Shown: positions 49,785-55,198 of the stretch, in pieces
Layout: every line of letters begins with the position of its first letter
How positions within the stretch are numbered: the first letter of the stretch is position 1
NCBI GenBank assembly: GCA_043802665.1
Contig: JAZDKW010000010.1
Location: forward strand, 4,024-68,023
Direction: 5' to 3'
DNA from: Patescibacteria group bacterium
GTDB taxonomy: Bacteria; Patescibacteriota; Kazan-3B-28; UBA10110
Length of the DNA stretch: 64,000 bases
Notes under the pieces: model-generated
The model's input: only the letters and a program-made list of their open reading frames with translations
The model's database searches: none
What the model was told of the DNA's origin: nothing
Made by a program: the position numbers and the translations under genes

Positions 49785-50375
49785 CTATACTTTGAGAAAA
49801 CGGTTAATTCGATCAATCCAATCTTCGTCTTGACGATTTACTTCCGGAACAAACTGACTAAGCGCCTGGCGCAAAGAGGAAAGGTCTTGGGCATTAATTA
49901 ATATAGTGATGACGGGCATCAGACGAAAAGTGGAGATAACATTTAAATAGTTTTTGCCAGATTTATTATGAAACCAAAAACCTTTTAACTGTTCGAACGT
50001 CAATGTTCGCTCGTTGATATGTAGCCCTGCACTATCCAGCCGGTACTGCATCCGACGAGGTTTCAGCCGACCCGAAATTAATAATAACCCAGCTACGACT
50101 ACTGCCATCGCTAATAAAATCCACTGTCGCGCGTACCAACTATAGCCACCTACCACTAAAAAGGCGGCGATAAGAATAGTGTACCAACGCCAATCTCGCC
50201 GGTGCACTTCGAACTCTTCTGCCTGCCAAACTATCGGCTCAAAAGTAGATTGAGGAACTATTGGTTGCTCGGGTTGTTCTATCGGCTCTTGCGATAATTG
50301 TTCCTGTTGCTCCTGCGGCTCTTGTAATGGTTGTTCTTGTTCATCCATAAGTAAATACTCCCTTAAAAATAACAC
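49785..50375 (-). CDS. Membrane protein with Gln/Glu-rich N-terminus and two TM helices (hypothetical).
   Basis: ORF features only. Confidence 0.35.
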   Translation of the reverse strand: MLFLREYLLMDEQEQPLQEPQEQQEQLSQEPIEQPEQPIVPQSTFEPIVWQAEEFEVHRRDWRWYTILIAAFLVVGGYSWYARQWILLAMAVVVAGLLLISGRLKPRRMQYRLDSAGLHINERTLTFEQLKGFWFHNKSGKNYLNVISTFRLMPVITILINAQDLSSLRQALSQFVPEVNRQDEDWIDRINRFLKV

Positions 50376-50545: not shown

Positions 50546-51121
50546 ATGACTATCCTGTTTTTTGAAAAAGAGGTGACCTATAAAATGAATAGATCAATTG
50601 TTGTTCTTTTGTTATGCACTCTGGCAGTGGCAACCATCTTTACCGTAACCTCCTGCAAAGGGAATATAAAAGGCGCTGGAGTTCCCCAAGAACCGGGCCA
50701 CTATCTGTATGATGGTAGTAAATGGAATAAGATCCCGACAGATAATATGATTACAGGTGGTGGGCAGATTAGTCTTGACCGGTTTAATAATGGAACAATG
50801 TTCGCTGTCCATGCCGGTAAACTCAAGTATGCTTACCGTATGACGCCCACTGAGATGAAAAGCGCAGGCAGTCCACTGAGTAATGTTTCGGATATCACTG
50901 TGAACCACATAGGGATCTTCCCTTTGTGCAATGCTCAGAACAATCAGGCTTTAGAATTTATATCATCAGGGTATACACAAAGCAACGGTATTGATAAATC
51001 TGATTACTCCGCCGGTTATGTGTTAATGGAGTATGACAGACTACCCGCTTCCCCAATTGGCAAATATTGGATGCACATTTTAGTGGCACCTGGTTATGGC
51101 ATAGGAATAATATCTCAATAA
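50546..51121 (+). CDS. Putative lipoprotein (hypothetical).
   Basis: Signal plus lipobox-like VTSC. Confidence 0.35.
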   Translation: MTILFFEKEVTYKMNRSIVVLLLCTLAVATIFTVTSCKGNIKGAGVPQEPGHYLYDGSKWNKIPTDNMITGGGQISLDRFNNGTMFAVHAGKLKYAYRMTPTEMKSAGSPLSNVSDITVNHIGIFPLCNAQNNQALEFISSGYTQSNGIDKSDYSAGYVLMEYDRLPASPIGKYWMHILVAPGYGIGIISQ

Positions 51122-51225: not shown

Positions 51226-51900
51226 TTATTTTAGGTTATTACTATGTTTGCCTGCGAGATGTCTTAATGATGATTTGGTCAGGGCAAACCCATAGATATC
51301 CTGGAAATTATAGGCAAATTGACGCGCGGTGGTATGGGAATCGACAGTCCGGATTAATTGCAATAATTTATTCTGGGGATACTTATCCAATAAATACTTC
51401 ACCCAATAATAACCTACTCCGTAGACTTTTTGCCCACCTACATTAAAGAAACCATTTAAGGATATTAGATCTCCCTCGGCCGGAATTGTTTTATTCTGCC
51501 CAGCCAAATAACAAGCTAACCCCTCATTTAACCATCTTGGTTTTCCAGTATTACTATCCGTAATAATATGGTAATACAGATGAACATATTCATGGACCAA
51601 GACTTGCCAAAATTGGCCGGCCGTATGATCGGATTCTTTGGCAAATACTTTAGGATCAAGGATATAAATTGTTTCTGATTTAGTCCAAGCACACAGCCAG
51701 CTCTCGGTTTTTTTGCCCCAAAATTTGTCGATCTCTCGTCGAGATTGGAGTAACACCACTGGCGGTAATTCTAGTTTGATACCAAAAAATTTATTCAGCT
51801 TTTTTTGAGCTAACTTAAGCGCAGAAATCACCTTGGGATCTCGAGTAGAAGTTGATTTGAAATTAGAGATGCTCATACCATAAGAATACCAGAAAAGCAC
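51226..51900 (-). CDS. Small gluzincin-type zinc metallopeptidase (M1-like HEXXH-X18-E).
   Basis: QVLVHEYVHLYYHIITDSNTGKPRWLNEGLACY: HExxH, exactly 18 residues, then a WLNEGxAxY-like third ligand. Confidence 0.5.
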   Translation of the reverse strand: MLFWYSYGMSISNFKSTSTRDPKVISALKLAQKKLNKFFGIKLELPPVVLLQSRREIDKFWGKKTESWLCAWTKSETIYILDPKVFAKESDHTAGQFWQVLVHEYVHLYYHIITDSNTGKPRWLNEGLACYLAGQNKTIPAEGDLISLNGFFNVGGQKVYGVGYYWVKYLLDKYPQNKLLQLIRTVDSHTTARQFAYNFQDIYGFALTKSSLRHLAGKHSNNLK

Positions 51901-51959
51901 TCTTGACCCGAGAGATTACAGACTAAACAAGCTTAATGATTTAATAAATTCATCAAGAG

Positions 51960-52487
51960 TTATTTTGAATAAACCATCTGGAGAGTTTCGGGCTGGCAAG
52001 GATTCTTGGGGTATTTTTTAATACCTCGGGGTTGAAATCCGACTTTTCCATAAGCCTTAACGGCACGAATGTTTTCTGGCCTTACTTCTAAATATATTCT
52101 ATGGATATCCAACCCTTTAGCCTTAGCCAGCAATAGCTTGATCGCTTTAACCCCATATCCCTTGCCCCAATATTTCTTATTGCCAATTACTATCTGGGTC
52201 TCGTAATTATCATCCTTTCTTTTCCCTAAGGAAATATGACCAATGGTTTGTTTGTTTAAATCGACCATGAAATGATGATCTGTTTTACTGCCCAGCATAT
52301 CGTGAAAATATTCTTCTACTTCCGCATCGTAAATCGGCTTAAAATCTCCGCTGGTGAGTGTAATTAGATCTTTATCTCTCCACCACTTCCGGAAATATCC
52401 GATATCTCCAGATCTGATCTTTCTTAAAGTTATCTTGTTCATAAGGTAATTATAACAACTTGTCCAATAACAATATTTTTCCAACAC
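51960..52487 (-). CDS. GNAT-family N-acetyltransferase (RimJ/RimL-like). GTG start at 52487; alternative ATG at 52442.
   Basis: …QIVIGNKKYWGKGYGVKAIKLLLAKA… acetyl-CoA-binding motif Q/RxxGxG/A. Confidence 0.75.
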   Translation of the reverse strand: MLEKYCYWTSCYNYLMNKITLRKIRSGDIGYFRKWWRDKDLITLTSGDFKPIYDAEVEEYFHDMLGSKTDHHFMVDLNKQTIGHISLGKRKDDNYETQIVIGNKKYWGKGYGVKAIKLLLAKAKGLDIHRIYLEVRPENIRAVKAYGKVGFQPRGIKKYPKNPCQPETLQMVYSK

Positions 52488-52556: not shown

Positions 52557-52582
52557 AGCCGCCTCATTATAAGGCGGCTACA
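52557..52582 (-). terminator. Intrinsic terminator immediately after the precursor-peptide gene.
   Basis: Minus strand: AGCCGCCttataatgAGGCGGCTTTTCTCTTTTCTT. Confidence 0.6.
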
Positions 52583-52598
52583 CCGCGGTCTACCACAC

Positions 52599-52769
52599 TT
52601 AGCCGACACATCGGCAACTGGGACCGCCGGAATCGCAATCGCATGGATCACAATTGCAGTCGCAATTGTCACATGTGATACCGCGTTCCGTTAACTGTGG
52701 GGTGTTAATTGTGGATACAGCTGCCATGTCAATGATGGTTTCGAAGCCACAACCTGACAGATTATCCAT
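52599..52769 (-). CDS. Cys/Asp-rich precursor peptide (56 aa from ATG 52769; the ORF track extends to GTG 52790). The sequence is MDNLSGCGFETIIDMAAVSTINTPQLTERGITCDNCDCNCDPCDCDSGGPSCRCVG.
   Basis: GGGGA ribosome-binding site 7 nt upstream; starts 15 nt after the stop of the radical-SAM gene; nine Cys; terminator follows. Confidence 0.6.
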   Translation of the reverse strand: MDNLSGCGFETIIDMAAVSTINTPQLTERGITCDNCDCNCDPCDCDSGGPSCRCVG

Positions 52770-54115: not shown

Positions 54116-54382
54116 AGTTAACCCCTCCTTATTGTTCGATTTATCAAAGGGCTTTATTATAATACCAGAAAGCAAAAACTATGTCCAGATAACACTTTTT
54201 GCCGAAAATTATTATAAAAATTAATAAAGGGGGGCAACTTAGACAGGTTTCTGCGATCTTTACACCATCCTGACTGTTCAGGCAAGCAGGATATCATTTT
54301 TAAACATTATCCTGAGTTATTAAAGAATATTAATGCCGGACAGGTCGCTCTAATAAACTACGCAGGGCGGTCTTCGCTTTTA

Positions 54383-54613
54383 TTAAAAATGTTTCTTCAA
54401 AAATGCCCGACCAGAACCTGACTTAAAATACTTTTCTAATTCAAAAGCTTTATATTTGTCTTGAAGCGCTATATAAAAACAAAGTTTTACTGGTAAACGG
54501 TCTTTGGTTGCTGAAACATAGCCTTTTCGATGTCTATTGACTCTATCTTTCAAGTCATCAGTGCAACCTATATAATAACCTTCTCGACATTTCAGCGAAT
54601 AAATATAATACAT
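54383..54613 (-). CDS. Small GIY-YIG nuclease (UPF0213-like), copy 1.
   Basis: MYYIYSLKCREGYYIGCTDDLKDRVNRHRKG. Confidence 0.7.
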   Translation of the reverse strand: MYYIYSLKCREGYYIGCTDDLKDRVNRHRKGYVSATKDRLPVKLCFYIALQDKYKAFELEKYFKSGSGRAFLKKHF

Positions 54614-54732: not shown

Positions 54733-54824
54733 TGGCGGAGAGGGTGGGATTCGAACCCACGATACCCCTTACGGGGTATGCCAGTTTTCAAGACTAGTGC
54801 CTTCAACCGCTCGGCCACCTCTCC
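54733..54824 (-). tRNA. tRNA-Ser (anticodon TGA).
   Basis: GGAGAGG-TG-GCC-GAGCGGTTGAA-GGC-A-CTAGT-CTTGAAA-ACTGG-[variable hairpin]-GTGGGTTCGAATCCCAC-CCTCTCC-GCCA. Confidence 0.85.
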
Positions 54825-54845: not shown

Positions 54846-54938
54846 TGGCGGTGAGGGAGGGATTCGAACCCTCGCGGGGAATTGCTTCCCCCTACCGGTT
54901 TAGCAAACCAGCCCCTTCAGCCTCTTGGGTACCTCACC
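54846..54938 (-). tRNA. tRNA-Ser (anticodon GCT).
   Basis: GGTGAGG-TA-CCC-AAGAGGCTGAA-GGG-G-CTGGT-TTGCTAA-ACCGG-[variable hairpin]-GAGGGTTCGAATCCCTC-CCTCACC-GCCA. Confidence 0.85.
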
Positions 54939-54958: not shown

Positions 54959-55198
54959 TTATTTTAATCTACGATGCAAATCTTTGTGCCCATCGCTGGA
55001 CTTCAAGAACCTTTCTCTTCTCTGAGCTATCAGTTTATCTTGGTAGGCTTCATAGCAAACCAACACAAACGGGATTCTATATTTAGTAGATGTTACTTTG
55101 CCGGCTTGATGCTCAGCAAATCTTGATTTTAAATTATCGGTTGAGCCAATGTAATATTTACCATCTTTGTTACTTTTTAGCACATAGACATAATGCAT
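54959..55198 (-). CDS. Small GIY-YIG nuclease (UPF0213-like), copy 2.
   Basis: MHYVYVLKSNKDGKYYIGSTDNLKSRFAEHQAGK. Confidence 0.7.
   Translation of the reverse strand: MHYVYVLKSNKDGKYYIGSTDNLKSRFAEHQAGKVTSTKYRIPFVLVCYEAYQDKLIAQRRERFLKSSDGHKDLHRRLK

Follow-up and report, generated by a model that had tools for sequence, protein, structure and literature searches.

The locus described here raises the question of whether a small zinc peptidase, encoded downstream of a peptide maturase and of a short cysteine-rich peptide, takes part in the maturation of this peptide or is only its neighbor. The locus lies in a 64-kb stretch of DNA from a Patescibacteria group bacterium, the whole of which is called the window; coordinates are positions in the window, and L and P numbers designate the loci and proteins to which it was compared. 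Along the minus strand, the gene of a radical S-adenosylmethionine (SAM) enzyme with a SPASM domain (hereafter rSAM), a precursor open reading frame (ORF), a hairpin, a GNAT N-acetyltransferase gene and the peptidase gene follow each other in this order. An earlier note on this DNA had seen in the last two genes a candidate tailoring and leader-removal pair, tied to the precursor by co-directionality only, and had proposed to check whether they stay with the rSAM-peptide pair in relatives. Our answer, given with slightly better than even confidence, is that the minus strand from 54115 to 51226 forms one unit of the type that makes peptides produced by the ribosome and modified after translation (RiPPs), with the mini-gluzincin as a maturation enzyme of the cassette.

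The zinc site of the peptidase was well defined. It consists of HEYVH followed, 18 residues further, by E118 in WLNEGLACY. Residues H95, E96, H99, P113, W115 and E118 as well as the GLACYLA segment were invariant in 26 family members (alignment A1), so that the HEYVH-X18-E signature reported in the earlier note is real and not a chance match. The protein passed the gathering threshold of Peptidase_MA_2 (PF13485) with 44.3 bits for a cut-off of 32.4, and the same assignment was precomputed for 31 of 33 homologs. The signature had been described as that of family M1. At the level of the motif this likeness is real, as a profile search of the PDB with the family matched only the HExxH...WLNEG stretch of aminopeptidase N (E = 7e-4). 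The peptidase is nevertheless no member of M1, because Peptidase_M1 (PF01433) scored 16.6 bits, under its cut-off of 27.7, because its sequence has no GXMEN exopeptidase motif (K-T-E-S-W, residues 56-60, comes nearest among the conserved elements), and because both the N-terminal beta domain and the C-terminal helical domain of M1 are missing. With 216 amino acids (aa), and about 200-220 aa in its relatives, the peptidase is indeed far shorter than the M1 chains matched in the PDB (780-1184 residues), as had been pointed out together with the missing N-terminal domain; the C-terminal domain is lacking too. No signal peptide or membrane segment was evident in the peptidase on reading its sequence.

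An AlphaFold2 model of the peptidase (predicted local distance difference test, pLDDT, of 93.4) was compared with known folds. The comparison figures were highest for M9 collagenase (13.1), followed by M30 lugdulysin (11.1), collagenase ColT (10.6), M1 aminopeptidases (about 10) and thermolysin (8.6). The model combines a thermolysin-like two-subdomain fold with the HExxH motif and a downstream Glu ligand, as in gluzincins (clan MA(E)). As modeled, the peptidase is a stand-alone gluzincin catalytic core, the predicted fold of which is closest to the catalytic domains of M9, M30, M1 and M4. In a library at 50% identity, a threshold of E up to 1e-10 gathers 652 representatives of its family, nearly all of 200-220 aa. 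Some members of the family are fusions (P0309, P0349, P0361, P0411, P0297, P0307, P0389), which join a GNAT-like domain to the peptidase, the peptidase to NUDIX, a transglutaminase-like domain to the peptidase, or two peptidases in tandem. In P0309, the GNAT-like domain is N-terminal and gave a weak Pfam match (E = 9e-4).

The link of this enzyme to the cassette was examined from both sides. On the rSAM side, the set comprised 80 loci of the window rSAM family from a metagenome scan, of which 54 were informative (at least 1.1 kb downstream). The PF13485 peptidase family was found in 25 of the 54, nearly always 200-280 bp past the rSAM stop, and the gap between the two genes holds a Cys/Asp-rich ORF of 40-70 aa. 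In all, 29 rSAM-family loci carried this peptidase family, 18 on the same strand as the rSAM and 11 on the opposite one. A Cys/Asp-rich ORF of this size directly follows the rSAM stop in most of the 80 loci, and the window precursor is thus a member of a large peptide family. Its GFETIID motif is common to the closest clade, where the leader reads GFE[TS]I[LF]D and is joined to Cys/Asp cores (homologous small ORFs in L047-L054); 9 Cys stand among its last 24 residues, and the core contains CDNCD and CDPCD. The rSAM itself matched Radical_SAM (PF04055, E = 3e-19), Fer4_12 and SPASM (PF13186, E = 3e-5), while all its NCBIfam matches were far under the cut-offs; its CPR (candidate phyla radiation) orthologs number in the hundreds, with 30-49% identity. 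Six C-terminal segments gave no Pfam match to a PqqD-type RiPP recognition element (RRE), and we therefore do not claim the C-terminal extension of the rSAM as such a domain.

On the peptidase side, we compared 20 loci. Scanning of species-representative genomes gave 18 orthologous loci, the annotation of which was almost always that of Patescibacteria or CPR metagenome-assembled genomes (MAGs), and the closest relatives, looked up individually, gave 2 more. In 9 of the 20, a CxxxCxxC-bearing rSAM gene lay within 3.5 kb (L004, L006, L008, L009, L010, L015, L018, L126, L128). The closest relatives of the window peptidase with enough flank, L126 (75% identity) and L128 (54%), both adjoin rSAM/SPASM genes. 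The rSAM/SPASM gene of L126 is divergent; in L128, precursor, rSAM/SPASM and peptidase come in order, and a second rSAM/SPASM gene is convergent. The precursors of L128 and of L004, the peptidase of which is 44% identical to ours, are Cys/Asp-rich like that of the window (EL[IV]DHPIVNH...DDCDPCDYEA). Up to 3.5 kb from the focal genes (peptidase or GNAT), rSAM-like genes had a density of 0.91 per 10 kb; farther out in the same loci the density was 0.09, a difference of about 10-fold, and the window as a whole holds a single rSAM gene. By these three counts, the peptidase shows the conserved co-localization with a precursor and its maturase that is expected of a RiPP leader peptidase.

The strongest argument for a metallopeptidase as a working part of the unit comes from the other partners of the rSAM family. 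Clustering of the neighbors gave three small HExxH families which exclude each other. The first is PF13485 (28 loci). The second, of about 285 aa and with no Pfam match, has two invariant features, HE[IM]SH and a Glu that follows after 27 residues (12 loci, L047-L060, e.g., L049:8567-9436, minus strand; alignment A3), and is on its sequence a candidate new metallopeptidase family. The third, of about 200 aa, has HE[LI]xH and no Pfam match (6 loci: L068:89-679, L071:1830-2480, L074, L081, L087, L096). An adjacent small HExxH protein was present in 29 of the 37 loci with both flanks (16 PF13485, 8 HE[IM]SH, 3 of the third type, 2 other). Homology of the PF13485 and HE[IM]SH families could not be demonstrated, as hhalign returned a probability of 5%, though the HExxH motifs and the Glu ligands were each aligned together. 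Interchangeable HExxH partners at the same position suggest the non-orthologous replacement of a required function. Since related cassettes almost always carry a mini zinc protease, such a protein is a good candidate for an undescribed leader-removing enzyme.

Several observations weigh against a single unit in the window. The peptidase is separated from the precursor by the terminator and by the GNAT gene, and no exporter, transporter or immunity gene was found near the cassette in the gene content of the window. About half of the peptidase loci show no rSAM; these are either contigs of small size or contexts with plainly no relation to the cassette. Two of them, from candidate division Kazan genomes (L002:6632-8645, L003:6686-8627), have a class II aminoacyl-tRNA synthetase gene, the stop of which is overlapped by the start of the peptidase gene, and no rSAM nearby, a context which clearly looks like housekeeping. 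Methyltransferase and NUDIX genes recur as neighbors or fusion partners of the peptidase, and its family may simply reside in accessory-gene islands. A class I SAM-dependent methyltransferase of about 154-213 aa, TehB-like in four of five cases, lies directly upstream of the peptidase in L005, L007, L008, L009 and L010, and another of about 317 aa recurs beside the rSAM in L098-L103, L119 and L123; these recurrent methyltransferases may be additional tailoring enzymes. Finally, the pairing seen in the window is unusual. The 12 loci with an HE[IM]SH partner are exactly the 12 closest relatives of the window rSAM (36-48% identity), and none of these 12 has a PF13485 peptidase. Between the window peptidase and those peptidases which do pair with the window rSAM family, identity is only 22-33%, and the closest relatives of the window peptidase pair with a different, shorter rSAM/SPASM family (about 370 aa). 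Because both clades normally have other partners, the window pairing is a mosaic and possibly accidental.

Two of these points can be answered in part. A strong terminator-like hairpin was confirmed where the earlier note had placed the terminator, between the end of the precursor and the GNAT gene that lies downstream. A hairpin with a T-run between precursor and peptidase also occurs in L064, L080, L084, L108 and L120, and because the same position recurs in relatives, the window terminator is a normal feature of such loci rather than evidence for a separate function. As for the mosaic, the native partner appears to have been lost. In the relatives, the HE[IM]SH protein is a divergent or convergent partner of the closest rSAM genes. 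No intact HE[IM]SH gene exists in the window; when the hidden Markov model (HMM) of that family was run against the window in six frames (hmmsearch), it matched a short segment (E = 1.6e-4, HMM positions 15-48) which is divergent from the rSAM start, as in L057-L059. The frame of this probable relic ends inside a GIY-YIG ORF (54383..54613), and the fact that this ORF abuts the relic suggests that the gene of the native partner was disrupted by an insertion or a rearrangement. The PF13485 enzyme would then plausibly be its replacement.

The most serious alternative, which we regard as quite possible though short of even, is that only the peptidase belongs to the cassette and that the GNAT, with no relation to it, lies in between by chance, as a conserved housekeeping acetyltransferase of CPR bacteria of the Rim type or of the polyamine/aminoglycoside type. 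Membership in the superfamily is clear (PF13302, 67.2 bits for a cut-off of 25.4, E = 3e-18; PF00583, 57.4 for 20.7, E = 2e-15). At a finer level, the NCBIfam models of RimI, SpeG and AAC(6') all remained below their cut-offs. RimI was the top match, with 52.6 bits for the 86.4 required by TIGR01575 and 25.8 for the 173 of PRK09491, and the cut-offs of RimJ and RimL were not reached either. Among solved structures, those nearest to the GNAT are SpeG and AAC(6'), which are polyamine and aminoglycoside acetyltransferases, a point which also counts against the single unit. The GNAT family (239 relatives, 56-80% identity, in many CPR lineages) is far more conserved and widespread than that of the peptidase, and because of this high conservation it looks like a housekeeping enzyme. 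Again to the detriment of the single unit, no GNAT was found in the 80 rSAM-family loci searched with orthologs and three other GNAT seeds.

The surroundings of the GNAT orthologs point in the other direction. Nine orthologs with enough flank were sampled; 4 of them stand in unrelated contexts with no rSAM, and 5 lie within 2 kb of rSAM genes of at least four different families, for a background of only about 0.1 rSAM per 10 kb. Three directly follow a pair of rSAM and small peptide. L130:792-2850 and L142:2524-4516 show a distinct cassette type, with an rSAM of 415-468 aa, a peptide of 27-31 aa ending in NTC[KR]xxSNC[KH] and then the GNAT ortholog, and in L133 the rSAM is followed by a Cys-rich peptide of 37 aa and by two GNATs. 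In L136 the rSAM lies about 2 kb upstream of the ortholog, and in L147 a PqqD-rSAM-SPASM gene is divergent from it. Also, GNATs unrelated to that of the window follow the peptidase in L004 and L014, and the GNAT-like domain of P0309 speaks in the same sense. A link of the GNAT to the cassette is thus possible and weakly supported, clearly less so than that of the peptidase, and we are inclined to doubt, without firmness, that the GNAT takes part in it. Of the pair proposed in the earlier note, conservation of the neighborhood upholds the peptidase half, while the GNAT half receives some backing from cassettes of other rSAM families and none from its own.

It is unlikely that neither gene is tied to the cassette, that is, that both are independent small housekeeping or accessory enzymes brought together in the accessory-gene islands of small CPR genomes. 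The terminator after the precursor would favor independent genes, as would the synthetase and helicase contexts of the peptidase (L002, L003, L012, L013), its recurrent methyltransferase and NUDIX neighbors or fusion partners, and the lack of a PF13485 peptidase in the closest rSAM relatives. Such independence hardly accounts for the 10-fold enrichment of rSAM near the focal genes, for the stereotyped order and spacing of rSAM, precursor and peptidase in 25 loci, or for the mutual exclusion of three HExxH families at one position; moreover, the position of the terminator is conserved where the peptidase clearly belongs to the unit.

We consider it equally improbable that peptidase and GNAT are leftovers of another cassette, of the L126/L128 type, which has lost its rSAM, and that they have no working tie to the present rSAM and precursor. 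The pairing of the nearest peptidase relatives with the rSAM/SPASM family of about 370 aa, and the existence of a partner family proper to the window rSAM clade, would agree with this history. Against it, no relic of a second rSAM or of a second precursor was found anywhere in the window, nor any further peptidase, GNAT or HExxH relic of the third type; the present cassette has its own native partner only as a probable relic, which leaves a vacancy; and the substrates of both cassette types share similar Cys/Asp cores with CDPCD.

A little less probable still is a peptidase which belongs to the cassette and degrades or inactivates the modified peptide (self-protection or turnover), or which clears unmodified precursor as a quality control. 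An apparently cytoplasmic enzyme with no exporter encoded nearby would agree with such a role, and the convergent orientation of the peptidase in 9 of the 25 loci would suit separate regulation, yet the peptidase is paired almost universally with leaders that are very short and share a conserved motif, which fits processing, and the metalloproteases known so far from RiPP clusters are mostly leader peptidases (PMC10885120). A role in anti-phage defense was rejected, since PADLOC gave no match for peptidase, GNAT or precursor and only a generic viperin-like similarity for the rSAM.

Returning to the single unit with the mini-gluzincin as maturation enzyme, a mechanism can be proposed which goes beyond the observed gene content, motif conservation, fold and neighborhood statistics. 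This kind of unit would be widespread in CPR bacteria. The rSAM/SPASM enzyme would cross-link the Cys/Asp core, probably by thioethers as in ranthipeptides. At CX3D motifs, PapB forms thioethers between Cys and Asp or Glu (PMC9413430), and as the core has CDNCD and CDPCD, thioethers at such motifs are our best guess. The small cytoplasmic zinc peptidase would then remove or trim the short N-terminal leader; the usual HE[IM]SH partner having apparently decayed to a relic, the PF13485 mini-gluzincin would most likely do its job. With much less certainty, the GNAT may come last and acetylate the amino group that is freed once the leader is gone.

Compared with known systems, the logic of the locus is familiar and its enzymes are not. 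Leaders of RiPPs are removed by zinc metalloproteases of families M1 (AplP), M16, M61, M103 and M50, and AplP, which acts on class III/IV lanthipeptides and lipolanthines, does so by endopeptidase cleavage followed by aminopeptidase trimming; a dedicated small gluzincin is not among the families covered by the review of RiPP leader proteases (PMC10885120). AplP-like M1 proteases share with the window peptidase the gluzincin HExxH-X18-E. However, they are full-length M1 enzymes with flanking domains, often encoded outside the cluster and serving lanthipeptide cassettes, whereas the window protein is a bare core of 216 aa in a radical SAM cassette, which fails PF01433 and lacks GXMEN. More generally, none of the established leader proteases of these five families is a PF13485 protein of about 210 aa, and none accompanies an rSAM/SPASM cassette for a Cys-rich peptide. 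PF13485 gathers uncharacterized gluzincins to which Pfam assigns no function; the window protein passes its threshold, and the CPR subfamily is uniformly of about 210 aa and stand-alone. The M9 collagenase and the M30 enzymes (lugdulysin/hyicolysin) are only 10-17% identical to the window peptidase and are secreted, multi-domain endopeptidases of 360-680 residues.

On the side of the maturase, ranthipeptide systems (PapB/freyrasin, SCIFF-type) are alike in having an rSAM/SPASM enzyme and an adjacent short Cys-rich precursor with Asp and CX3D motifs. They differ in that the window precursor follows the maturase rather than precedes it and in that no PqqD/RRE Pfam match was detected; with 66.4 bits for a cut-off of 340, the window rSAM also falls far outside the PapB model (NF047865). 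As for GNATs, they serve tailoring or immunity in several RiPP pathways, by N-terminal acetylation in microviridin and goadsporin and by acetylation of the MccE/RimL type. The window shows a similar arrangement, with a PF13302-type GNAT near a precursor and a protease, and by analogy the acetylation of a newly exposed amine would be chemically plausible. The window GNAT is, however, not orthologous to any of these enzymes and is absent from all other cassettes of the window rSAM family. Literature searches on PF13485/Peptidase_MA_2 with RiPPs, and on rSAM RiPPs of CPR/Patescibacteria, returned nothing specific. The locus thus appears to run a known scheme (maturase, precursor, leader peptidase, optional acetyltransferase) with undescribed protease families in an under-studied lineage.

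This would matter in several respects. For many radical-SAM RiPPs, the step that is missing is leader removal, and an enzyme of 216 aa, soluble and encoded along with its substrate, would lend itself readily to the maturation of heterologously produced peptides. The mini-peptidase would also be a practical marker for RiPP cassettes in CPR genomes, and the partner swap, in which a decayed native peptidase is replaced from another cassette type, would be a natural experiment on modularity. If the link of the GNAT is true, it would reveal a tailoring step shared across unrelated CPR peptide cassettes. We tentatively put forward a wider view, which we hold with less confidence than the reading of the window itself: CPR bacteria may possess a modular RiPP system in which an rSAM/SPASM enzyme and a Cys/Asp peptide are obligatorily served by at least three interchangeable, apparently unrelated mini HExxH peptidases (the PF13485 core, the HE[IM]SH type of about 285 aa and the type of about 200 aa). 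These would be undescribed families of dedicated leader peptidases, among the smallest gluzincins known, and the GNAT conserved in CPR would act as an all-purpose tailoring enzyme, added to several rSAM-peptide cassettes with no relation to each other.

Table 1. Elements of the putative RiPP cassette and of its upstream side, in window coordinates.
Feature	Position	Strand	Characteristics
Radical SAM/SPASM peptide maturase (rSAM), 443 aa	52784..54115	-	ATG with AAGGAGG before; CPNNCIHC (CxxxCxxC) from residue 19
Precursor peptide, 56 aa, MDNLSGCGFETIIDMAAVSTINTPQLTERGITCDNCDCNCDPCDCDSGGPSCRCVG	52599..52769	-	GFETIID leader motif and Cys/Asp-rich core CDNCDCNCDPCDCDSGGPSCRCVG
Intrinsic-terminator-like hairpin and T-run, directly 3' of the precursor and upstream of the GNAT	52557..52579	-	10-pair stem, then TTTTCTCTTTT
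GNAT N-acetyltransferase, 160 aa	51960..52442	-	PF13302, PF00583
Minimal gluzincin peptidase, 216 aa, Peptidase_MA_2	51226..51876	-	PF13485
HEYVH-X18-E zinc-binding/catalytic motif of the peptidase (H95, E96, H99, E118)	51523..51594	-	Sequence and alignment
Probable relic, N-terminus of the HE[IM]SH protein of about 285 aa	54236..54337 (frame open 54218..54418)	+	Family HMM match
Promoter-like site upstream of the rSAM gene	54159..54187	-	TGGACA, 17 nt, TATTAT, extended TG; consensus match only

The limits given for two of these genes differ from those first called. The ORFs at 51226..51900 and 51960..52487 (minus strand) had been bounded by upstream GTG codons, which gave the peptidase the 224 aa of the earlier note. 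Both ORFs exist. The true start of the peptidase is likely the internal ATG at 51876, from which the protein has 216 aa; likewise, the GNAT likely starts at the ATG at 52442. These starts, placed from sequence comparison, are preferred because full-length NCBI proteins of 100% identity from a Patescibacteria MAG (P0001 for the peptidase, P0154 for the GNAT) agree with them. Unlike these two proteins of the same contig, the window rSAM itself was not returned by the protein collection, where the best match had 49% identity; its coding sequence may be unannotated or called differently in the public record.

Just upstream of the cassette, a pair of tRNA-Ser genes (54733..54824 and 54846..54938, minus strand) is bracketed by two small ORFs with GIY-YIG domains, the one at 54383..54613 already mentioned and another at 54959..55198, both on the minus strand. 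The two ORFs directly downstream of the peptidase (50546..51121, plus strand, and 49785..50375, minus strand) matched neither Pfam nor NCBIfam. One of them has a lipoprotein-like N-terminus (…LLLCTLAVATIFTVTSCKG), and the other a Glu/Gln/Pro-rich N-terminus together with hydrophobic segments.

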